The notes under the pieces: generated by a model | Database searches by the model: none | Told to the model about the DNA's origin: nothing | What the model saw: the letters and a program-made list of their open reading frames with translations, nothing else | Made by a program: the position numbers and the translations under genes | DNA from: Asterionella formosa | Taxonomy: Eukaryota | Reading direction: 5' to 3' | Assembly (NCBI GenBank): GCA_002256025.1 | Contig: NKIB01012745.1 | Span: 51,572-71,571, forward strand | DNA length: 20,000 bases | Shown here: positions 531 through 20,000 of the stretch, piece after piece | How the letters are laid out: every line of letters starts with the position of its first letter | How positions within the stretch are numbered: position 1 is the first letter of the stretch

Positions 531-785
531 CTCCTGAAAGTTGCGGTAATAGGCTGAAACTGAACATTTAGCTATCTTTATCCCATATTAAATTGTTTAT
601 TTAAGCAAAAATGACCGCAACTTGCTGATGTTTGAGTTGATTTTTCTAAAACACATGTACTTTCAGTCCCATATTTGATAAATCATGAAACCCTCAAAAC
701 TGGCAGACTACCCAGTAATTAAGAGCGTCTTGCCATGGGCACCGGCACTGGTAGGCTACGACCGGTATGTATGTAGAGATCATCG

Positions 786-3882: not shown

Positions 3883-5935
3883 ATGATGACACTCCATTTT
3901 GCACTTATTCTCGTTTTCTTCCCTTCACTTTCCCATTTTGTATGTTTCCCTTATCTCTAGCTCCTCAATCACATCTCCATCCACTTATTTGGATGTAGTA
4001 CAATATCTGCTAGCTTCCTTTTTTCTGTATGTGACTGTCACAGTCTAGATTCAACACTAGCCATTATACCTTCAGCACATCAGATAACAAAAGGAGATAA
4101 TTTCTCAATGACTGATTTGACTCCAGGTTTGAATTGATGATTTCGAACTAGTTGCCATTGTTGAAAATTGTTTATATACTCCTTCAGATTAAATCTATCT
4201 TGGTGCAATTCACTTGGCTCATCCTCCCAAGGAACAAGGCAAAATGATGAACAAATGGCAGCACCAAACAATGTAGGAGGGACTTGTTGACCAATTTTCA
4301 TCATTATAATGATGGGCACACACATGTTTACATTCGAAATTAATTTGCGCATGGGGGAAGGGGGGGAATACAGAATCAAACCATGCACAACAGGAAGGCC
4401 CAGTAGTGCACATTTTATGCACACTTTTTCAGTTTCAATTCACTCCCAATGATTCATCCCATACCTACTGGATGAGATAGGCTGGCTTTCCATTCCTAAT
4501 TCTCTTAAGTACTTTTCTATGATGTTAAATAATCATTCATTAAATCCAAGTCATGTTCTGATCATCAAAATCATGTTCACCAACATCTACTGGTAATGGT
4601 ATTTAGATTTTACTTATACAGTTCACCAAATCTGGTAGTATCATCATTGTTCTAAATTGTGCATCTAAAAATTACATGATAAAATGAGATGTCGGCGACT
4701 GCCATTTTCGATGTCAGTATGAGTGTTATTGAAATAATTCCTTTGCAATTGTATTTTCTATGTCTTGCTTAAAATATGTACCAAATAGCAAACTGTCATT
4801 CTCATTTTTCACGGAGATATTCATTAATTTTGTCATAGTCAAGGTTGAGATGACGACATGATGCAGTATTCTCCAGCAGCCGCTCACAACAACGACTACA
4901 AGAATGTAGTGTTCTGCCCCCTATGTACATAGAAAAAAATTGAAACATCTAGTCTAAATGATTATATAAAATTATACTTTGGGTACTCTGAGCATATCAT
5001 ATATCCTAGCCAAAGTATGTGATACTATGTGATATGTACTGTGATACTGCAAGAATAGCGGTAGGCTGTTGCATCAGGCGTTATAATCATGGCTGTGACC
5101 AGCAATGCATATAGATACAATGATATGTATGTTTATAGTATTGACTAGGCTATCAAGTGGTAGTGGTTGTGTCTGTTCATGTATATATTTCATAGGCATA
5201 AGGGTCATTCAGAAAATCTATTTATATTTGCAAGTTCTAGTTCTTGTTGTCACTAAATTCTAGTCATTTTTTGTCAGCAAGTTCTCAACGTAGAAAGAGA
5301 TGATTCCTATTTGTTTTCCGAAGCTACTACCAGAAGATGGTTTGCTGATCCGGTTCATCAGTCAGCAATAAGAGCTGTGTTCAGAGATTGATTCTGCAAA
5401 TTGTCATCGGTCAATAAGAATAACATTTTCCGCTTATCTCGTCTGGTGGGCATGGGACAAATTATTGGCAATGAGTCGAAACTGAAAAGGTGCGCATAAA
5501 ACGTGCGCTTCCGGACCTTCCAGCCCAGAGAAGCTTACTCAAATCCTTTGTAAATTACTGTTGCCATTCAGACGCACATCATCGATAGAAACTACATGTA
5601 TTCACTTCTACTATGGAATATTTTCTATGATGCATTGAATGTTACTCCCTCTAGCTGGGCGAAAACCATTGCTTGCATCAATTTGTAGCAACGCCAGTGC
5701 CATGATGCAGCTTATATATTTAGGATGAATTATGATTGATAGGTAAAAATAAAATGAGAGGTAAAAGGCAAAATGAATATTATTAGAGGGTTAAAGGATG
5801 AAAGCGAATGATAATAAATGGGTAGAGTATGATAGACAAATAATATCAGTAAGGACAGGAAAAAATTTTAGAGTCAACAAAAGGGGAACCAAAACCAGAA
5901 ATCGAATATAGAATCATCTTCAGGTACATAATAGT

Positions 5936-6221
5936 AAAAATATGTATTGATAGTCATCCAAAAGGACCATATTAGTCATCAGCTTCTTTAAAACCTGAAC
6001 CTTTTGAATTACCAGCAGGACGCTTCTTTACAAATTAATTGACCAAACGAAAGCTGAGAGCCTCATCTCCATTTACTGGAGTTGTTACGTATTCCTCGGA
6101 GCACCGGTACTTGATTTGTTGTCATGGTGAAATTTGACTATCGGTACCTGGTACCGGAATATTTTGAGTCGAAACATGATGGGGAAAATTTACCGGTATA
6201 TGACTCTCAGTTTTTAGGTGG
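5936..6221 (+). mobile_element. Isolated terminal ~290 bp of a second copy of the pogo-like element, inverted relative to 6279-6514
   Basis: Ends in TATGACTCTCAGTTTTTAGGTGG (6199-6221) followed by TA. Aligns in blocks with the reverse complement of 6279-6514, e.g. AAAAATATGTATTGATAGTCAT, GTACTTGATTTGTTGTCAT and TTTGAGTCGAA. Confidence 0.85.
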
Positions 6222-6278
6222 TACCTACTGGTACTATACTTGGTAATGAATGCAAGGTAGACTACCTGATACCAGGTA

Positions 6279-6309
6279 ACACCTAAAAACTGAGAGTCAT
6301 ATAAAGTTT
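6279..6309 (+). repeat. Left terminal inverted repeat of the pogo-like element
   Basis: Reverse complement of 8734-8764 with about 4 mismatches in 31 bp; preceded by TA. Confidence 0.9.
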
Positions 6310-6521
6310 ACCCCATGGTTCGACTCAAACTATTTTAGTCCTATTTCATGATGACAACAAATCAAGTACGTAGCTAGCTAAATGTAGAAAAGGCTCTCCG
6401 CTTTCAATAGGTCTGTTTAATTAGTAAGCAATGAGGCTTCATAATTCAAGAGATATGAAGTTCTTAAAGTTGATGATTATGGTCGTTTTGTATGACTATC
6501 AATACATATTTTTTAGGTACC

Positions 6522-8170
6522 CGCAAGTTTTCTTTCCACTGTTCGCTAACAAGTTGTTTTCATCTACCACCCACTATGCAAATGGATCAAGACCAAATAC
6601 CCATTCATCTTCAAGAGTCTTAGCAGCAAAAATAGTGGCACACATAATTGGATTCCCATTTGCAGCTGTAAACCCAAGACCGGTAAAGTGTGCATCCTCT
6701 TTATGTGCCGATCTTTGCTGTGGTCGCTCACCCTTTCCACAGAGAAATAACTCTCCCCCCACATTGCCATCTTAAGTTTGAGATGCGTTTGATCCCACCT
6801 CGTCAACAAAGAGCAGCCGGTCAAGACAAATCAAATTATTCTTTGTCAGGAGTCCCAATGCATCCTTTTCCTCTACTCCTTCTTTATTCAACCATTCCTT
6901 ATTTGGGAATTCAACAGCAATCCCTCCCGCAACCATCTCCTTGTACACTTGCTCATACATTGCTTCAAAATTATTGTAAGTGCACCAATCGGCTCTCTTG
7001 CTTTCAAATTTGACACCTCGTTGAGCGGTCCCTAACTTTTTCTTTGTTCCTTTTCATGAACCCTCTACAGTAACCCACTCCAAGTTTCGGATTTTTATTA
7101 GATCGGTATGCAGAAGAATGAGTTTGTCTCCATGAATTGACGCTGTCTCCTATTTTAGTTCCAGATATTAAGGAGTTGGCAAGTCGAAGACCATCACTGA
7201 CAGATATAGGATTTCGCATTCAGGCAAGTTGATGAATCAATTCCACCATGTACGGTTCTATTGCAAGCATTGGGCTTACCCTTCCATCATGTCAGTGCCC
7301 CATTTCTTTTGAGACTCTGTTGACAATTGTGCTTCTATTCATGAAAGTTTCTTCTGGCAGCCCATTCCTTGCCTTTGCTTCTGTTATGATCATCGCAAGT
7401 GTTCCATTTTTTACTCGCCTATTGGCATCTTTGAAATTTTCTTGAGCAACAGCATACAAATCACATATTTCCCTCATGGCAATTTCATGTCGTTGCCCAA
7501 CATCTCGTACAGCAGCTGCAGCGGCACCCTTTGGTCTTCCTCCGGTTATTGTGCTGGTTGTTTGTTGACTAACACTGCCTTCTGCATCTGCTTTTCTCAT
7601 CTCGCCCTCACCAAAATTCTCACAGGTATGTTTAATATTGTGTTTGTCATTCTACTCTGCGCTTGTCAGCTCATTTAGCTGGGTTTCAAATGATATCTCA
7701 ACACCACCCTCCTCTTCGTTCTGCTGTGTTTGAAACAAATAAAATAAATCAATTGCTGGGGTGGTTGCTGGTGCTACTGGTGAGGAAACATAATTGGTGG
7801 TGATGGCGGGGGCAAGATTCCTAGGAGCATTAAAGTCACTGGTCGACATTGTGGAAAGGGAAGCAAAAGTCAGAGAGGATGAGGCGGCATTACCCATATC
7901 AGCTGAGAACGTGCTGGTCGATGTACTAGTAGTACTAGAGTAAATCTCATTAAATAATTTCTTGTTCTTCTTCATCTGGTACTTGACATGGTTAATTGAT
8001 AGCTATGGGAGCAATCTTTTCCTAGCCTCCACCACTTTAGAAATAAGCCCATATGGCATTTTATCTCCGTTGTTAGCCTTGATAGCTTCTAACTCTCGAA
8101 TTACATTGTTGAGGTTTAGCTGCTCAATTTTCGTTTCATGAGGAGTTAGCATTCCTTGGTCTGCCAACAT
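6522..8170 (-). pseudogene. Fragmented transposase with a CENP-B/Tc5-type HTH region and the N-terminal part of the DDE domain
   Basis: Collinear minus-strand fragments: MLADQGML...PYGLISKVV...LLP*LSINHVKY (from ATG 8170); GGRPKG; LRLANSLISGT...LGVGYCRGFMKRN (HTH); LLFVDEVGSNASQ (first catalytic D); HFTGLGFTAANGNPIMCATIFA. Several stops and frameshifts. The second and third catalytic acidic residues are not present before the subterminal region. Confidence 0.8.
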
Positions 8171-8733
8171 GATAACTATAGTGTCTCAACGATGACTTTG
8201 CAAATAATTGTATATTGCTTGTGAGACTTATAAGTTGGATTTGTAGGCTTGTTTTTATGTCATGCATACCAGCCGCAATGCTGGTTTACTAGTCGTCTAT
8301 CTTGCCAGTACCAGGTACCACTAGGTTATAATATTTATTTATTGGCGCACCAGCACTTAAACAACTCTAAATAAACAAGTTATTATGGCGCACAACTTAA
8401 TTGCAATGGCGCAAACATGCCATAGTAATGATGCGGAAAAGTCTTGAAACAAGCTCATTATTTATATAGCTTCAGCTTCTCCTATGTGTTGAAAAAGTCA
8501 TGCAGGCTCAATGGGTTAAAACTGATTTGGACCAAAAACCGTCGACAGCCAATTTTGGGCTACTATAACTAAAGAACTAATACGAGATTGCAGTGTTCAA
8601 GTACGAACAATGCTGTTCCTTATATGCACAGGAAGAACTTTGTCTAATCAAGATTTATAATAATACAAATATTCGTCTCAAACCGTGTGATTACCCCGTT
8701 TTGTTATGACTATCCGTACAAAGTACAAAACTG

Positions 8734-8764
8734 AAAGTTTGTATGACTCTCAGTTTTTCGGTGG
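8734..8764 (-). repeat. Right terminal inverted repeat of the pogo-like element
   Basis: ...TATGACTCTCAGTTTTTCGGTGG followed by TA; matches 6279-6309 and 6199-6221. Confidence 0.9.
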
Positions 8765-9718
8765 TACCAGGTACCTGGAAGTACAAGGTCCTACAGACTA
8801 CTGAGTACCTGGTACCCTGGAGTTAAAATTAATCAACTCGGTGAGTAGTATGAGTACGGAGAACAATTTACGATTTAATATTCTGTTGACAATCTTACCG
8901 GCAGTAGTTTCACTTGTGTGCTTTCTAAAAGAGTGAGCTTAAACTAAAATGTAATTTTGAAATGTAGTTTCGATTGAAACATGGCAACTCCTACATGTTT
9001 CTGAAAATTAATTGCTTTTTGTTCCTTGGAGGCGAGGTTCTTCATAGTTCCTACAGCTGTAGTGAAGTAGATTACATCCTCTTCCTTGCTTGTAGCAGCC
9101 AAACATATATCCATCTAGCCTAGGGAGATTTTAGGACATAGATGCTCCTTTACTGAGATACTTCTTTCAGGTATCTGCGCTATGATGATTGGATTGTTCC
9201 TCAATCCTTTAATAGTATGATTCTATTGTTCTTCAATCCTTTGGACAGAACGGATTTGTCTCTCCAATCATTTGTAGTTTAGGGTTTACCAAACTTGTTT
9301 GGTAAACATAGGGAAAACTTGATAGAATTCGCCCTTCGACGTTGTTCTTTATAAAATGTCTGAAGGGGGTTATTAATCTTGGTACCTAATTGTGCATTGT
9401 TCCATCAAACACAACAGCTAGTAGGGAAATGTTGTCTTCACACAAAAGTGGAGACCCAACTGGGAATCAGGAATCAAGAATTCTTCTGTGTTTCAACTCC
9501 TGGTACCGGTATGGGTAATGTGTAGTCTAATATGTTCCGGTATAATCACAGCATAATGTAGTCTGCCGGTACCTGGTACGGTAATTGCGACGGTCTCGAA
9601 ACATCACAGGAGGCCTCAAAAATCTCAACCACAATTATGCACTCGAGGATTACCGGTAGCTATTTTTCCTTTTTCTCTGGAACAACTCTTGATTTATTTG
9701 CTTTCTGTGCTCTTCATT

Positions 9719-10604
9719 ATGCCTCCCTCTGCTGCTTCCCAATTATTTAGCGTTGTCGGAAAGAATGTATTGGTTACTGGGGGATCACGAGGAATCGGTT
9801 TGATGATAGCAAAAGGTTTTGTGTCTGGAGGCGCCAACGTGCTCTTGACATCACGAGACGAAAAAGCTTGTGCAGAAGCAGCTCAATCAATTCAATGTCA
9901 ACATGTTGCTTCCAATGTATCAACACGAGAAGGTTGCAAAGCTTTGGCGGATCATGTTTCAAAAGTCTTTGATGGAAAACTACATGTCCTTATCAACAAC
10001 GCTGGTACGTCCTGGGGTGAGCCTCTTGAGCGCGAGTCTGGACGAGTCAACTGGGGGTGGGACAAAGTTTTGGATCTCAACGTCAAGGGTGTCTTTTATT
10101 TAACACGTGAATGCATACCCATGTTGGAAAAATCTGGCTCCTTACAAGATCCAAGCCGCGTTATAGTAAGTAGTGTTGTGCATTTTGGGACGTAGTTGGG
10201 CTTGGTCAGCTAAACAACTTCCTCGTTCTCCAAAACAGAACATTGGATCTGTTACGGGTATTGTCCCCCAAGATGCTCCGACCCATGCATATGATATTTC
10301 TAAAGCCGCTGTTCATCAACTTACCAAGAAGCTGTCGTCGGATTTAGCCAAGAAGAACATCACAGTGAACGCTGTAGCACCAGGCTTTGTTCCATCACGA
10401 ATGAGTGATGGACTTGCAACTTGGGGTGCAACCAGCGAACAAATTGCGTCCAAGATCCCCCTGGGTCGTATGGGAAGCGATGATGACATGGCCGGTGCTT
10501 GTATCTATTTCGCGAGTCGAGCCGGTTCATGGTGTACGGGTGTAATTCTCAACGTCGATGGTGGTACAATTGGTGCCATGCAAATACCACTTTCCAGTTT
10601 GTAA
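9719..10604 (+). CDS. Classical short-chain dehydrogenase/reductase, RhlG-like subfamily (270 aa), possible PTS1 (-SSL); exons 9719-10165 and 10239-10604
   Basis: Motifs TGGSRGIG, INNAG, NIGS, YDISK (YxxxK), VNAVAPG and VDGG. Subfamily-like segments QLFSVVGKNVLVTGG, NNAGTSWGEPLE and GWDKVLDLNVK. GTAAGT donor at 10166 and ACAG acceptor ending at 10238 (73 nt, phase 0) restore RVI-NIGS. Confidence 0.95.
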
Positions 10605-11675
10605 ATTTGTTTACTAGATACGTTGGGATTAAAGGTCCAAAATGGCTCGAAATTCGCTCAGTCTTCATACAAATAGATCACTAATTCATTTTTATTCATA
10701 CAACTAACAAGTCTGAGCTGCGGGATCCGATTTCAGTAATGTTGTTGTACAGCTAGTAATTGAAGTTTTGATTGGGAATCGCCCTCTACGCGAGACACGA
10801 TCATGTATCTCGAATTACAAGAAAACGGTAGGAAGAAGATAAATGAATATTCACAATGACATTGGCCGATTCAAGTTCCTTGCGATCACCTTCCTACACG
10901 GAATTTCTTTAGAGCTCAATGTATCAATTGTTTAAGAAGACACAGGCAAGTTGGTAACATACCAAAACCATGAACTTTTTTGGATGACTTTAAGCCCATC
11001 TACGACTGCTCAAATGATAGTCGAAATAGAATCTTTTAGATTGATCAACTATTTCACAAATTTCAATACTATCTATGACATTTCATTTGCGACTTTCCAC
11101 CGCAATCGGTTTCCGGCTAAACTTCAGTGTAGAAAACCCAGGAGGAGCGGTAGCTGTCGTCGCAGTTATGTTATACATCTTGGCTTGTTTTCTCAGCTGC
11201 ATTTAGTATACGAGGAAGAAAGTCCCGCGGTTCACCCAGGATTGGAACATAATCTTCATGGAGGCCCTGTGTCCTAAGCCCGGGCCAAGAATCGATGCAA
11301 ATTCTTTTCTTGAGGAGAGAATCTCATAGGCATCAAGTTAATGACAGATAACCGAGCAAAAGGGGCGTGGTTCTGCTTTCTAGCTATGTAGGGAATGAAT
11401 ATTTGAATTCTAGCTTCCTACTAAAAGTTCCTTGATACTATGGTGTCGAATAGCACATTTCAAAAAGCACATGATCGATCATCCCTCTCCCTTCAGGTTC
11501 ACTGTTGTAGCAATCTTCATATTAGATTTTCTACTTATTGGATATAAACAATCGCAAGAGAACATATCAACTCGTAATCGATCACTCCGTCTGAGGTTAA
11601 TTCTCGTCGTCACCCGATGATTCCATGCTACCTTTTTTTGAATGATTATAATGTGAATCAATTCACTAAATGAAA

Positions 11676-13627
11676 TCATTGGTTCCCCATAGCGACTTTT
11701 TGGTCTTTTTCGGTTGTTGCAGCAAAAAGAGGCCTGGAAGATTCACATCCATCACCTGATTCGTTTTCGACGAAACTGTCACTCGACAAACCCTTGTCGT
11801 CCAATTCAGAGTCAAGCAAGGGAGAATGAGCCCATGGCGAGAAAAATTCAGCAAACATTTGATCGTCTCCGACAATGATCATTGATGCGAGACGAGCAAC
11901 AACCAATTTCAGTCCATGAACGAACCAATCACGGTCTTCCGGTGTGGCTGCTTCGAAGACATAGCGAGCATTCGAGTTCGTCAGAATAGAAAAACTGCTA
12001 TGAACTTTAGCAAATGGATAAACTTCTCTGTCAAGAGTTTCCGGGGTCAAAACACGAACCACGGATAGGAGGTCGATTGAATCGGGGGTTCGACAAGACA
12101 TACCCAATTTACGATGGTTGAGATGTGGCTGATACGTTTCACGCCACATGAACTTGGGATGAACTACAGTAGATTGCAATCTCGATCCCATCTCAAACCA
12201 ACCCTGGACAGAAACAGGAGATTTCGACGTGACAGAACTCTGATCGGTTCCACCACCTTGAACATCGTCCGCATTTGAAGGGTGCCAAATAAGTGTGACA
12301 GTTCCCAAAGTAAGTTCCTGTAAAATGAAAAGTGAAGTGATTGAGATGCGATAGCTCCTCGACTTGTATTCACTACATGAACTTGACTTACCTTCAAGAA
12401 CTCTTCCACCGCCACATCATCTCGAAAGTCAAATTGCTCAAAGTCACGATTCTTCTCCATGTCTTCGCTCGTCGAATATGAGATACCGTTGAAGCAAGGA
12501 GCGCCCTGTCCTTGAGCATTCCTTGGCGCATTCGGAATCGGGCCAACTCCAGCACTTCCATATGAAGCCGTCGTGTCGATACATGCAGGAAAGTCATCAA
12601 ACGCAGGATACGCAGCTGTCATTCTCGAGTGACGAAAAACTTCTGGGTCGCTGTCATAGTAGAGTTCGTCAATTAATGAATTTTCACTCGTGGACTCAGC
12701 CGAAAGCTTGGAATCATCCATAGATTTTGTAATTTCCGATGTCCACAAATTTGCATGTAAAGTCTTCGAACCATGGTTTGGACACAGGTCTGCTGCTCGT
12801 CGGAGAGTTTCGTCGGCTTCTCCTTGTGCTTGACTATGCCATTGATACCATAGTCGCTGCATTCGACCCTTCTGTGCCGTGCGGTGACTGCATCGGTTTC
12901 GAGCAACCCGCTTGTGGGTGCTTGTCGCAATTGGAGCACAACATCTAGACGACGCTGACCAAATTCCTATCGTTGACATCCAATCTGCTGTTGTAGGCGA
13001 TTTAGATCCCAATAATTGACAGACATCTGAAGCCACCCGGGAACGCATATCCTGAAAGTTCAAATCCGAACAACTGCTTGTTGTATCTTTTCGAAAGGCA
13101 GCGGGAAATGATTGCGATTGAATATCAGCATGTTTGCTCCTCTTTGACCTACAAAGAGGCGTCAACCCACAGTCTCCCGAGCTGAATAGCTTTTGCACAC
13201 TCTCCTCCGAATCGCTCCCGTTTCGTGAATCTGATGATTGTATTGTACTATGTCCTTGCGTTTGATGCTTGAAAGAATCGGGATTGTCGAGGGATCCAGT
13301 CGAGTTGACGCACAAATAGTTGGACATGCCCTCTGTCAAGCCAACAACAAGCGAATTGAACATTTTTTCAGTTCTGCTGTCATCCGAACTCGCCACAATA
13401 GCATTACCTTTGCGAGGAGTGGACGACTTGCTGGAGAATGACGAGTGTGTTGCGTCATCGTCTGATGTAATTATTTCAAGCTCTGGTTCTCGCTCTTGAA
13501 CCTCATCTTCTTCGTCTTCTTGATCGTCCAAGATACTTGACGCTCGCGACGATGTAATAAATCGCCGTAAGTGAGTTTCTTCCGCTTGAGACGTGAGACG
13601 AATCTCTACTCCTTCTTGAAGGTCCAT
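11676..13627 (-). CDS. Hypothetical 625-aa protein with a low-complexity Ser/Asp/Glu-rich N-terminus and a C-terminal PH-like domain; exons 13627-12392 and 12317-11676
   Basis: GTAAGT donor at 12391 and polypyrimidine+CAG acceptor ending at 12318 (74 nt, phase 0) join the 487-aa and 210-aa ORFs (EEFLK-ELTLG). The C-terminal segment SIDLLSVVRV...SFSILT...YVFEAATPEDRDWFVHGLKLVVA has the strand-strand-helix pattern of PH domains. Confidence 0.8.
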
Positions 13628-14624
13628 GCCTTCAGAAGTAATCGCCCGTAAAACTCAGAAAAGGAGAAGTGTGTAGTGTAGTGCGAAGCTGTTTCATGTA
13701 CAGTGATGCCGTGTATTTTAAGTGTTGCTGGAGGTGGCGAAAATGAAGTTGGGGTGCATTCTTTAACACCGAAAAAGGAGAAAAACATCGGCGACGAATA
13801 ACAAGGTGAGCAAGACCGATCATTTTTGGCGATCCATCATTCATGCGGCTTTGACAATTACACATCATATATTCCGGTACATAACTGTTTATCACCATGC
13901 TTTTCCCCGCGACTCCGTGCATTGATATACTCATACATTCATCATGCAGAATGTTCTTACTTAAATGCACGACATTTGAAATAGATATGTACGACCAGAT
14001 AAACCTTGTACCAAAGGAGGAACTGCTAGTTCTTTAGTAAATACGCCTGCACTGTAATCTGTCAATCTGTCATCCATGAATTGCATACTGGTACCTGGTA
14101 CCTGCATGACAGTAGCATTGGTTATAGTACCGGTAGAGACACTTTTATGTAAAAACCCACAGGGACAGTGATGTGGACACTTTGCTTAAATGACAGCAAC
14201 ACGCGACGACTTGAAGGCCCAGCTCGCAACGAGACGAAGAACACCAGCCGTGTTTGGTGACAAGCAAATACTGTATCATTTCAGAGAATGGCCCAGGATT
14301 TGATTTCCATTCATTATTTTAGCTTTAATCTGATTTAGCCTGAAATATTGAGACCAATCTGTTTTAGGTATTCTGCCATTTGTTTCCATTCGTTTTAGTA
14401 CGTTGGATAGCTAAAGACTCAATTATGCTTCATTTGTGACGTCATCATTTCAACCAAACTGCCGTCACAACCATGGAGTACCTGGTACCTACGGGTATGT
14501 ACATGCTACCTGGTATCTGCTACGATGTGAGCAATGCTGTTGCTAATGATACCATGTGCTTACCTGGTACCTCGTACGTACTACAAAACTACAGCCTATT
14601 TCTATCTTCCGGTGTGTACAACGA

Positions 14625-15011: not shown

Positions 15012-18000
15012 ATTACCATGTTCAAGAAGTTCTATAATTGTACCACTCAGTACAGGTCCAGATAACCTTGTAAAAATCTGCTCTTTGACATTCTTCGTCA
15101 AAATTTCTGCTGGATTGTTTTCTGATCTTAGAAAAACAATACTATATGCAACTCATCCTCATCTATCATGTTCTTGACATGATGAAACTTAATATCAATG
15201 TGTTTTGTTCTTGTTCTGAGTTGTTGATTCTTCGCTGTGAATATTGCACCTGTATTATCCTCACGTAAAATGCTTGGTAGGATATTTTTACCACCTGTCA
15301 CTTTGTTCAGTAACATTGCAATAAATTTGATCTCTTGAGCACATTGCGACATCGCAACGTACTCTCCTTCTGTGCTTGACAGCGTAACAGATGACTGGCC
15401 CTTTGATTGCCAACTGATCAACGCACCACCAATGGTAACCAGAAAACCCGTAGTACTTTTCCGGCTTACCATATTAGTGGCCCAGTCACTATCAACATAA
15501 GCAATAACCCGTAATTCCTTAGGTTTTCGAATCTTGAGAACTCTGTCCAATTTGCTTGATAAGAATCCAAAAACTCGTGAAATTCCATCACAGTGTTCTT
15601 CGCCTGGACAGCTTAAATACGAAGATAATTCACGTACTGCATTGGCACAGTCCAGGGAATCTTTCTTAGTAGACCATAATAATTTCCCAACAATCTTGCG
15701 ATATTCCGCCTCCATAAAAAGTTCTCCAAAATTGGCTCCTAATGTTTTTCCTGGTGCTCCTGGTGTCACATAAGACTTAATCTTCTTACCAGTAAGCATC
15801 TCATATTCCAGTAGCATTTCAGTACGAAATTTCTTCAGCTGTACTTGCCAATATTCTCCAAATTTGTCATGCTTGCGCATATATTCCACACCTAAGTGTT
15901 TTCGTAGGGGACCTTGTTCTGTGATATTAAAATCTTCCTTGATCATATTTTTCTGTAGTCGACTGCATTCCTGGTACCACATATAATTCCATCATCCACA
16001 TAGTTTGCCAACAGCCCTTCAATTTGTCCATAGTTGTTACGGTAGATAAACAACATTGGGTCTATTTCGCTTTTCGTTATACCTGTCTTGCTGGTGACGC
16101 ATTTTGCAAATGTCTTGGACCAGCATCTTGGAGCTTGTACAATTACATACATAGCATTAATTAATTTGCAGATATATATATTCTGATCAATCCCTGTCAA
16201 TCCTTCTGGGGGCTAAATATAAATGTCTTCGTCGACATCAGCATTTAAAAACGCTGCTTCAATGTCGATTGCTTCCGCTATCCAACCGTAGTACAAAGTA
16301 ACAGCCAGTACAGAATTAATTGTAGCATCACTTGCAACAGGAGCGAATGTCTCAGTAAAATCAACTCCTGGGATCTGTTCATATCTCTTCACAACCAACC
16401 GTGCCTTGTATACTTTCTTGCCGGTTATAACGTCCTCCTTAATTTGGAAGACCCACCTTGTCTTAAGAGCTTGCTTGTTCACGTCATTTCTCTTAACTAT
16501 TTTCCACACTCCTCTTGCTTGGAAGTTTTCAAATTCTTTCTTTATAGCTTTCATGCACTCTTTGCGATCAGGTCTTGCCATTGCCTCATCATTACAATTC
16601 GGTAAACCTGGGTCTGATGCAAGACTTGCATTGAACACGAAATTTACTTCAGTTTCCTTATTCGAAGAAACTTCCTCCTCAATCACATTTGGTAGTGAGG
16701 TGTCTGGAGTGAACTTAACACTTGTAGTTGGATTATACAATGAGTCCAACTTCTTCATTTCTAGTTCCAACTTTGCCTGTTTAGATAGGAGCGTAGTTGG
16801 GTATTTAGGCTTTGCTTGTTGCTTCAAAACATTTCTCTCCTCTAGGTCAGAAATTTCATCACTCCTTGAGGTAGATTTTCTTTTTCCAGTGTCTGTAGTT
16901 GATTTATCCTTGTCGTTGTCATCTTCCTCATTGTCTGAAACTTCTGGTAGTAAATCTTCATTGTAGAAATCATCATCTAATCCATCATTATTGACGTCAG
17001 CTTCTGGTTGAACTGTTACTTTCTCTTTAGCATTGTCCTTGTAGATTTTTCCTAGTCCGTTCGTAGGTGCATTTTTTTTCATGCCACTCACTCCACTTTC
17101 TCAATTGTTAAGTATTCTCGCCTGCGTCATCGCAACGGACATACTTTGTCTTGTGACTGGCTCCGGCTAAACTTGATAGTAAAACTTCAATGACTGTTCT
17201 GATATCGCTCTTCTTTTTAATGAAATAGCTCCAGCGCTTTCTCGTGTAGTCGTCCACTGCCATGACCCAGTACTGATTACCTACAGCGGATTTCGCGTAG
17301 GGTCCGCTGATGTCCACAAACAGTCTCTCTCCAGGTACCATCGATTTTTCTTGCGTTGTTTTTGGGACGGCTCGTGCTTTCGCTTTCGCTGCCGCACAGC
17401 CTGCGCACACTGTCATGATCCCGCTCAACTTCCATCCAAATAATTTCGCCGTATTGTGCAAAAATTTCTCACCCACATGACCAAGCATCGCATGCGCTTC
17501 ATTAATATCGACAATCACATAATTATTATCAAACTCACCATTTTGATTATTCCATTTGTTCTTTCCCTTGTTCGTTTTCTTTGCTTCAACTTTCGTTCAA
17601 TCGTTTTCGTTGTAGTCATCGATCGATTGTTGTGTAGTGTTCTCTTGTAGTTGCTCGACTTCCATCACCGTTTGCTTGATGATCGGATTACCTTCGACAT
17701 GATACATTGCTCCGAGTTTTCGAGTTTTTTCTCTTTTGCGGGACAGAAAACCGCTCTTGTTTTGTATTGTCATCCTATCGTCCTCGAAGATCACTTGATT
17801 ACCCTTGTCGATCATTCTAGAGACACTGATGATGTTCTGCTTGAACTCCGGTGCATAAAGCACATCGGTGAGATGTGAGCGTTTCCCTTCGTCCATAGTC
17901 GTCAGGGTCATGGTATCAGAGACAGTTGATACTATCTCAGTTCTATTCCCTACCACTACCGTTTCACTCACTTGTTTCTTGTCTTCCATCATGCGCACGT

Positions 18001-18127
18001 CCGTGCAGATGTGAATGGTAGTACCACTGTCTAACAACCAGCGATTTCTGACGTCACAAACAAGGTTGACTTCCTCATTGTAACTAATTTTGACGCACAT
18101 GGCGACAAACATTCCTTGCTGGGTAGA
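15004..18127 (-). pseudogene. Disrupted copia pol (PR-IN-RT-RH)
   Basis: Split across at least six ORFs (17597-18139, 17108-17518, 16213-17091, 15943-16200, 15128-15982, 14805-15101) by frameshifts and stops. Confidence 0.9.
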
Positions 18128-20000
18128 TGTCGTCTGCAAATAAAACCATCATATTTCCATGATGCATCATGGGATTATGATCATCTGATCATAATTTTTC
18201 GTTATAGCTATCATCTAATAATTTTGATAAATGCCCTCGTAATTTAAATAGTAACCCTTTTGACTATGGAAATTTAATTATTAAATGTATTGTTTCATTG
18301 AGGTTCCTTTATTTAAATTTCTTGGTAGTAGGATAATGTACCAGTTAGAGTAATGTAGTTTGGCTAATCATCCTTGCCAGTCCTCACTCTAATTCTTGCA
18401 ACAATGACAAACCAGCCTTGTCGAGAGGAACGAGTGTTTGTGATAAAATCTTCATTTGTCGTTCAAGTCATCATATGTCTTCGATGAATCATCATCTACA
18501 TTGCACAGTATGTTCGTACTATGCAATCCGTTAAGAGCTTGAAAAGAAATCCAATGAAAACGAAATGGCTCATCACACAAACAAATATTTCCGGCCGGTC
18601 TGTCACCAGAGCATCAATCAGTGTTCCAACCTCAATCATAGCTAAACAATATCCATTATAGAACAGCACAATCTACTTCTCCCTAACATCGTCTCTCTAA
18701 CAAAAACTTAAAACATCTAAAATTGAAACACAGCATAGTAGGCGATATGCACAAAGAAGCATGAGACTGTCTATTTATAGTAACACTGTGATTCTGGTTT
18801 TGTAATATTCATGTCTCATTAGATTTTCTTTGTCATCATGCTAGCTCCTTACCTTTGAAGACAGGAGCGTATTCTTTGATGTATCTGGAATATTTCAATG
18901 GATGGCAGCAGTTGGATTTAGACACAAACCTCGACAAAAGCACTCCTAGTACCTTGTAGATGTCCATGAAAAGCGAGACACTTTGGCCTATCGACCACCA
19001 GTCAGTCTATACTGCAAAAGCAAGTTGAATGCCTATTTATAGATTCAAGTTTCAGTAGTGCAACAATGTAAAATATTAGAAACCGGAAGTCACATTTCAT
19101 CTAATTACGGTTTTCTTGAATCAGCCATTGACTTGTAGCTAAAAGAATTGACACAAAACAAATTGAAAAAACTCAACAGGTCGTGGAAAACTATGAACTC
19201 ATCATACATTGTATATATTTGAATTATGAATAATCAAAATTGATATTAGTATACACAGGATGTGCTGTCGTCTGTAAATAAAAAGTATCATGCATATAGG
19301 ATCAAGGATATCGTACGGTAATGGGCACAGGATTTTCGTATATATGATAATTTCTGGATCAAAAATATGATCAAGGTATCTTGTATCTATGATGATTTAT
19401 TAATAAGTTACCGACCTTGAAGTATAATGATAACAAGAGCATTATCATCAGACAATGTATATAAGCTGATCAACAACATTTCCATCAATATCCTAAACCT
19501 TGTCATATTTTTTTCACTTCTCGTGATCACCAAATGTAAATTATAACTACAACGCATCCTAAAATCAGCTCAATTCTATGCTATCATGTGAATTGTTTCA
19601 TCGTATATCTATCTTAAACGTGATCATAATTCTAATCACAAGCATTGTTCAAAATAGATTGAAATGGATCGTAATTTAACTACCAAATTAAGCAATGCTA
19701 TCTATTAATCTACATTCCAGAGACCCAACGTTTCCCTCTCTACTCTGTTCGATGTATATTGTTCCTGTCTCACCCTTTTCTTCCTCTTTTCTGAATCTTG
19801 TGCCAAGCAATGCCTTACTAATGTTGTGTCTCTCTCCCTGCTGTTAGTGTCATTGTGAACTCGCCGGCTATTCCGTTTGATCGGTTTTATTTTCCTATGC
19901 ATGCAGTTACAGTAACAATGAGAAGGAATGATTTGTTAGCTAGTCATGTTACATTGACACAAGAACACGCAATTCCATCGTATCCTCTTGCTTCACTTAC

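Follow-up and report, generated by a model that had tools for sequence, protein, structure and literature searches.

Palindromic inserts at TA dinucleotides in an old transposon copy of a freshwater diatom as candidate excision scars

An old, decayed transposon copy in diatom nuclear DNA has, judged against its relatives, gained several short inserts at TA dinucleotides. These inserts, together with the palindromes TACCGGTA and TACCWGGTA that recur through the window (the whole stretch of DNA that was analysed, 20,000 nucleotides), are explained best, and with somewhat better than even confidence, as Tc1/mariner-type excision scars of TA-flanked elements. The mechanism is of a known kind; the novelty lies in the element family, in its transposase, which lacks annotation, and in how abundant and chained the putative scars are.

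The window is contained in 20 runs from 13 studies, most of which carry freshwater, lake or river metagenome labels. The best named relatives of its dehydrogenase exon come from Bacillariaceae, Entomoneis and Nitzschia (68-74% identity), with other relatives at 90-91%, and these pennate-diatom relatives together with the freshwater runs identify the window as nuclear DNA of a freshwater pennate diatom. Few long reading frames are present, and the gene content consists of a split short-chain dehydrogenase gene, ATG5, a UBA-domain gene and a copia-type retroelement. The retroelement (15131-18148, minus strand) has matches to a Pol beta-barrel, an integrase and RVT_2 that are split over several frames, and contig depth is very high from there to the end of the window. 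An Rfam and tRNA scan of the window returns no match. A 90-nt inverted repeat with 78% complementarity (4393-4482 and 5432-5521) surrounds 949 nt of repeated DNA; its arms are joined on opposite strands by contigs of all four runs, and it may be another element.

Two transposon copies with facing ends

Global alignment of positions 5900-6250 with the reverse complement of 6251-6560 yields homologous arms that extend from about 5936 to 6513, and the arm pairs (I3, I4 and I5) have 88-97% complementarity. What looks like a foldback at 5936-6513 consists of two separate copies of a single transposon family, called family A here, that lie about 55 bp apart. The features of the region are as follows.

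5747-6221, plus strand: copy 1, terminal part of a family-A transposon, old and decayed (BLAST to loci L002 and L003)
6222-6278, no strand: spacer between the two termini, made up of the copy-1 flanking TA (6222-6223), positions 6224-6276 and the copy-2 flanking TA (6277-6278)
6279-8764, plus strand: copy 2, a 2,486-bp non-autonomous family-A transposon (inverted ends 6279-6309 and 8734-8764)
6502-8170, minus strand: transposase gene remnant, truncated and frameshifted, inside copy 2 (tblastn)
8765-8778, plus strand: right flank of copy 2, its flanking TA and then the unit chain TACCAGGTACCTGG

The termini are located by a metagenome scan with a 22-nt pattern taken from the inner end of the arms, which recovers five loci (L001-L005); the same pattern has no match in viral contigs and prokaryote genome contigs. 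On the left side of the pattern, L002, L003 and L004 match the arms of the window, and beyond ...AGGTGG-TA-CC the homology ends within a few bases, with unlike sequence following in each copy. This break in homology identifies the inner tips of the arms as element termini that face each other. A preliminary description of this DNA had placed a transposon end here, which the homology break bears out; it had also treated the arms as belonging to one element, and that picture gives way to two separate copies with their tips facing. A single foldback element or MITE was considered and rejected, as the conserved termini point inwards and each arm runs outwards into a different body. The locus resembles foldback elements and MITEs with long terminal inverted repeats in its inverted repeat of about 580 bp with a short centre. 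Unlike them, its right arm enters a 2.49-kb element with an opposite end at 8734-8764 and its left arm runs on to 5747.

The left arm is formed by the last 285 nt of copy 1 (5937-6221), which terminates in ...TATGACTCTCAGTTTTTAGGTGG, and the BLAST match of L002 and L003 spans 5747-6239 at 71.6%. The right arm is the first 235 nt of copy 2. The terminal inverted repeats of copy 2 (6279-6309 against 8734-8764) constitute inverted repeat I2 and match at 17 of 20 positions in a scan that counts the flanking units in; TA bounds the element at 6277-6278 and 8765-8766, and its right end is 95% identical to L001 and L005 over ~740 nt. Between the two copies, the 53 nt at 6224-6276 are rich in degenerate palindromic units, and a perfect TACCAGGTA occupies 6270-6278. 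Summed contig depth over 6004-6670 reaches ~211,000 in X1 compared with 760-1,300 in single-copy bins, a sum that is not a copy number and that reflects many similar contigs.

Several further repeats are seen in the arms. The terminal word TGAGAGTCATA returns as TGATAGTCATA where the 228-nt unit that the arms share with L002 and L003 has its inner boundary, and again about 45 nt inside the opposite end; the words concerned lie at 5946-5962 and 6286-6302, and also at 8706-8720 and 8741-8757. In their arrangement, these inner and outer words recall the paired transposase-binding repeats known from some Tc1-like elements. TA-AAAAATATG, the inner boundary of the unit, is identical in two unlike contexts. 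A TAGC duplication at 6371 is private to the right arm and absent in most family contigs, and TAGCTA is observed 12 times in the window (3.9 expected).

Insertions at TA in the left copy

The strings on which the preliminary description was based are found where it had placed them: TACCGGTA at 6191-6198, within GGGGAAAATTTACCGGTATATGAC (6181-6204), and GACTA-TCGGTACCTGGTACCGG-AATATTTTGAGTC at 6136-6170. At the matching places the right arm, read as its reverse complement, has GGGGTAAACTTTATATGAC and GACTAAAATAGTTTGAGTC, that is, TTTA-TATGAC at the 6191 site and a single A at the 6141 site. Alignment with the other copies gives the following inserts specific to copy 1.

6012-6018, plus strand: CCAGCAG, directly 3' of the consensus TA at 6010-6011, in place of one T
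6076-6085, plus strand: CTGGAGTTGT, directly 3' of the consensus TA at 6074-6075, in place of GC
6092-6109, plus strand: 18 nt, TTCCTCGGAGCACCGG plus TA, directly 3' of the consensus TA at 6090-6091, with the TA duplicated
6141-6157, plus strand: 17-nt chain TCGGTACCTGGTACCGG after the consensus TA at 6139-6140, in place of one A (other copies have GACTAAAATAGTTTGAGTC)
6193-6198, plus strand: CCGGTA, yielding TACCGGTA at 6191-6198

The clearest of these is the insert at 6092-6109, in which sixteen foreign bases ending in CCGG are followed by a second TA. Two sites have the form of a footprint, with both TAs kept and terminus-like bases between them, namely TACCGGTA at 6191-6198 and TA-(16 nt ending CCGG)-TA at 6090-6109. 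As a whole, the left unit measures 287 nt; its counterpart has 228 nt in L002 and L003, and in the right arm 236 nt. Relative to L002 the left unit has 59 extra bases and 2 missing ones. Five of the six left-arm inserts of at least 3 nt hold CCGG, CCAG or CTGG (P ~5e-5 under a base-composition null), and the same five adjoin one of the 23 TAs in the 228-nt consensus unit (P = 6e-5 to 2e-3 by a rough binomial). The sixth is a plain ATG duplication at 6176. Contigs of two other studies (X2 record 12 and X6 record 20) contain the left-arm inserts with 0 gaps. Among the 12 listed of 68 small gains and losses in the contig alignments, none falls at the 6141 or 6191 site; with family copies aligning better to the right arm, this weighs neither for nor against the inserts.

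Two details of the preliminary description are modified by the alignments. At the 6191 site, its reading of CCGGTA as a 6-nt insert fits if a 1-nt deletion 8 nt upstream is added (the left string has 12 nt and the right 13), and an equally good alignment has a 5-nt ACCGG insert with two mismatches and no TA duplication. At the 6141 site, the insertion at a TA is real (17 nt for 1 nt), but the proposed chain of about three units is not matched by the net gain of 16, which is no whole number of 6- or 7-nt units; a reading as three units needs a 3-nt loss and substitutions in addition.

The direction of change is assessed by comparison with the other copies of the arm. Identity to L002 at aligned positions is 87.6% for the left unit and 96.5% for the right arm, and this divergence from other copies of 12% compared with 3.5% makes the left copy the older one. 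The 6191 insert is absent in all four other copies of the same end (right arm, L002, L003 and L004) and in all three copies of the related opposite end (window 8734-8764, L001 and L005). The inserts at 6141 and 6076-6109 are absent in the three copies that cover them (right arm, L002 and L003), and the inserts at 6012, 6076 and 6092 are likewise missing from the right arm, L002 and L003. Since the available copies have no such motifs, the left arm gained them. The comparison comprises only three to four other arm copies, among which L002 and L003 are 99.6% alike, and these are paralogues, not alleles. On the evidence of these aligned copies, the left copy is the one that acquired the inserts, and the right arm and the other copies represent the state without them.

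Within that small sample, the proposal that the left arm carries insertions at TA is supported, and a family consensus carrying the motifs, the result that would have contradicted it, is not found among the available copies. The further expectation of independent inserts at other TAs in other copies is not borne out in the three that were available, since the right arm, L002 and L003 have 0 motif inserts; additional motif inserts at other TAs are seen only within the old left copy. The opposite direction, with motifs deleted from the right arm and the other copies, is very improbable. No supporting evidence for it was found, every other copy is without the motifs, including copies with differing flanks and the related opposite end, and it would call either for the same precise losses to be repeated or for a founder without motifs, which is equivalent to gain in the left arm.

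In the window and the fetched copies and contigs, no single site is seen in all of the occupied, empty and scarred states, and no occupied allele is seen at the left-arm insert sites in the X2 and X6 contigs. A motif at 8303-8325 is common to all three copies compared, so that an element can also pass on a motif that it already contains.

Element ends, transposase and motif abundance

All seven family-A ends read ...GGTG(G/T)-TA-CC, and the three bases that follow this TA-CC flank are CWG in five of the seven. Both ends of family A begin with CCA, and a further element in L005 starts with TA-CCAGTC. A second family of short elements, family B, has one copy in the window.

533-628, plus strand: family-B short element copy with inverted ends CCTGAAAGTTGCGG and CCGCAACTTGCTGA

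In many other copies, the family-B ends are TA-CCTGCAAGTTGCGG ... CCGCAACTTGCTGG-TA, and the consensus with its context is GGTA-CCTGCAAG...CTTGCTGG-TA(C), as assembled from unaligned contig ends at 553, 566 and 610 with 65-125 contigs per place. The window copy has no TA on either side. One family-B end begins with CCT and the other, read outwards, with CCA. Taken together, the ends of family A, the L005 element and family B indicate that elements here begin with CC(A/T), end with (A/T)GG, have a flanking TA on each side and tend to occupy TAs in a GG-TA-CC context. At 6514-6530, ...AACTTGCGGGTACC-TA stands between the truncated transposase frame and the 228-nt unit and looks like the remnant of a family-B-type end.

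The transposase remnant in copy 2 aligns with protein P0121 at 89-92% identity in two frames with one frameshift (tblastn). Set against the 723-residue relative P0122, the remnant spans residues 4-330, so that it retains the first third to half of the protein and lacks the second and third catalytic aspartates. Copy 2 is considered non-autonomous because the match to P0122 ends at residue 330 of 723. The relatives (P0121-P0276) have 556-973 residues; the diatom proteins, with 650-970 residues, possess a long helical C-terminal part. A search with P0122 of 1.84 billion representative proteins retrieves 3,746 at E <= 0.001. In 61 aligned sequences D390 is invariant, D241 and D428 are at least 90% conserved, and 37 residues separate D390 from D428. 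Pfam has no family for the remnant or its relatives; P0122, P0123 and P0124 have no Pfam match (DDE_1, HTH_Tnp_Tc5 and DDE_3) at E values up to 10, and a sequence search of the PDB with the profile gives no transposase, only a chance match. A protein-guided locus search (alignment A3) finds no relative in viral or genome contigs.

Structure prediction provides the class assignment. An AlphaFold model of a full-length relative has a mean pLDDT of 89.9, and Mos1 transposase complexes rank first in its Foldseek search (E = 6.6e-4). In structural alignment, Metnase/SETMAR (3k9j) scores Z 13.1 with 192 of its 201 residues aligned, the Mos1 catalytic domain Z 13.1 and the Sleeping Beauty catalytic domain Z 11.8. 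These three alignments cover 191-204 residues, nearly full length, with an rmsd of 3.0-4.7, and retroviral integrases come next with Z 9.0 or less. The full-length relatives thus possess a DDD triad and, in the model, an RNase-H-like domain of the Mos1/Sleeping Beauty type. By protein-language features the nearest named clusters are PF03184 DDE_1, of the pogo/Tigger kind (0.86-0.88, to be read as a lead only), and the nearest feature-based clusters come from diatoms. From these features we read the transposase as a member of the IS630-Tc1-mariner superfamily that is probably pogo-like.

The flanks of copy 2 are both TACCAGGTA, and this word is palindromic, so a TA duplication is indistinguishable there from a duplication of 3, 5, 7 or 9 bp on the same centre. 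An alternative is that the elements do not duplicate TA, that their ends include GGTACC and that they make a duplication of 3 bp (CWG) or more, as elements of PIF/Harbinger or other superfamilies do; the motif would then combine element end and duplication and would be no Tc1/mariner-type scar. We consider this a minor possibility. It would fit the TA-CC that follows the terminus identically in seven of seven ends, the CWG that comes next in five of them and the same nine bases on both sides of copy 2. However, the transposase fold is nearest to Mos1, SETMAR and Sleeping Beauty, with a DDD triad and 37-residue spacing; the nearest feature clusters, with the reserve given above, are DDE_1; and the isolated 6092-6109 insert duplicates exactly TA around foreign bases. 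No PIF/Harbinger chain is among the structural matches listed, but this comparison is one-sided, as such a chain could appear only if a PIF/Harbinger structure has been solved. A retained 9-bp duplication as the source of the inserts was tried as a candidate and rejected, with GGTATACC occurring 0 times in the window.

The palindromes are far more frequent in the window than expected. GGTACC occurs 21 times compared with 1.77 expected, a count that none of 200 shuffles reaches, TACCGGTA occurs 8 times (0.15 expected) and TACCWGGTA, that is TACCAGGTA or TACCTGGTA, 13 times (0.17 expected). No other TA-N4-TA or TA-N5-TA word of the window is as over-represented as these, and the next is TACCAGTA/TACTGGTA with 6 occurrences (0.87 expected). 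TACC(C/G)GGTA, TACC-NN-GGTA, TACC-NNN-GGTA, GGTATACC and TACCATGGTA are each found 0 times in the window. The centre of the motif is therefore empty or A/T, as is the third base of the element ends. In all, 59 unit matches form 31 clusters, mainly outside coding sequence, and one TACCGGTA (2934-2941) is inside a coding exon of ATG5. Units differ among sites in number, length and centre base. A 10-mer, TACCGGAATA or its reverse complement, is present at 2233-2242, 6151-6160 and 13870-13879 (3 compared with 0.04 expected); it is a recurrent variant unit that ends in GGAA in place of GGTA, and a similar TACCTGGAA is at 8772-8780.

Most perfect sites (17 of 19) are single units, and both perfect two-unit chains have unlike neighbours, CCTGG followed by CCGG in one and CCGG followed by CCAGG in the other. 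Chains could in principle also grow by replication slippage or local copying of a terminal GGTACC, in the manner of a microsatellite and without excision, given that the units are short, tandem and have TA in common. Plain tandem duplications do exist in the window (ATG at 6176, TAGC and TTGC in the right arm, and 7 nt at 8722). Slippage is nevertheless improbable as the source of the units: the inserts at 6191 and 6092-6109 arose at TAs with no adjoining motif, slippage predicts identical neighbours where two of two chains, a small sample, have unlike ones, and it offers no rationale for a centre that is strictly empty or A/T.

Each of the four single-copy genes in the window has a motif cluster 60-510 bp upstream of its start, and these clusters could mark past insertions near genes or a promoter element.

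762-807: motif cluster upstream of the UBA-domain gene
2691-2783: motif cluster upstream of ATG5
9499-9659: motif cluster upstream of the short-chain dehydrogenase
13874-14136: motif cluster upstream of the minus-strand gene ending at 13627

Contigs from other studies differ from the window in ranges that take in motif clusters. Within 13121-14347, X6 record 24 is 7 letters longer than the window, and over 9470-14347 X2 record 14 equals the window in length with 14 gap letters; both differences may reflect polymorphism in unit number.

The upstream clusters raise the question of whether TACCGGTA and TACCWGGTA are mainly promoter elements for a dimeric factor to which transposons home, with the inserts arising by unrelated mutation. 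This is unlikely. The presence of clusters upstream of all four single-copy genes agrees with it, as does the finding that seven of seven family-A ends adjoin a motif, which targeting predicts. It gives no account, however, of new copies at TAs within a decaying transposon copy or of element-end bases in five of six inserts. A fixed binding site would also not be expected to vary between sites in number, length and centre base as the units do, and no paper that has these words as a regulatory motif is among those listed by a literature search.

A proposed excision mechanism and its known relatives

In the excision explanation that we favour, TA-flanked elements of family A and of at least one further short family, with ends CC(A/T)...(A/T)GG, would insert at TA. 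Upon excision, the donor site would retain both TAs and two or three bases of each element end, and repair would then produce TA-CCGG-TA or TA-CC(A/T)GG-TA. Elements that start with CC(A/T) after the TA would leave TA-CC-GG-TA and TA-CC(A/T)GG-TA as scars, which are exactly the two over-represented words. For family B, three-base overhangs would pair by one T:A and give the five-base centre directly. The ends of family A are both CCA; its overhangs would place A opposite A, and the simple join, TACCATGGTA, is among the words absent from the window. This mismatch speaks against the explanation, as do the missing TAs beside the family-B copy of the window, the motif common to the copies at 8303-8325, the TACCGGTA in the ATG5 exon, the palindromic flanks, the small set of other arm copies with no motif insert among them, the second possible alignment at 6191, the uneven gain at 6141 and the clusters upstream of all four single-copy genes. 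The left copy would have been visited several times, with each visit scarring one TA.

Chaining may be explained by a target preference for TA in GG-TA-CC. Every scar would remake that context and scarred sites would be hit again, so that, if the preference holds, chains of units would arise because scarred sites are preferred as targets. All observed element ends adjoin units, which is consistent with such a preference. We infer excision as the origin of the inserts, the geometry of the cuts and target preference as the cause of the chains from these patterns. A more speculative extension, which we regard as possible but doubtful, is that scars are self-reinforcing, with each 6- or 7-bp palindromic scar making new TA targets and leading to hotspots and then chains. 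With hotspots just upstream of genes, the transposons would thereby supply palindromic words near promoters throughout the genome, perhaps adopted by the cell as regulatory sites.

Several known systems leave comparable marks. Mariner and Stowaway scars are described as containing the duplicated target together with a few bases of the element termini (PMC4561436), and the putative scars described here are alike in that both TAs are retained with element-end bases between them. The canonical Sleeping Beauty scar is given as cag or ctg between the TAs (PMC5224488), with an A or T centre as here. Unlike Tc1/mariner and Stowaway footprints, the putative ones in the window have 4 or 5 bases (CCGG or CCWGG) between the TAs, are abundant and chained, and are known here from sequence alone. 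The footprints of hAT elements (Ac/Ds) are similar as short palindromic additions at the excision site; according to PMC4561436, such additions are copied from flanking DNA via hairpins, whereas the CCGG found here matches the element ends and not the flank. For the pogo element Passer, TA duplications, scars of 0-4 bp and insertion at a TA centring the palindrome AAGTACTT are reported (PMC9976928). Pogo elements such as Passer, as presented in that source, share with the diatom elements the TA flanks, the short inverted ends and a TA-centred palindrome with a GTAC core (PMC9976928). They differ in that the diatom proteins have no Pfam match, their aspartate spacing is 37 rather than 35 and the insertion context is GGTACC. 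A full-text literature search for the motif words lists primers and cloning sites only, and no report of the motif is among the papers listed for diatom excision footprints or diatom MITEs.

Excision scars are normally studied singly, in the laboratory. If the explanation favoured here is correct, scars are common enough to influence which short words occur in a wild diatom genome and in the regions upstream of its genes, and past transposon traffic could be read directly from a genome's sequence. The transposase family itself seems to be common in diatoms, and annotation pipelines currently miss it.
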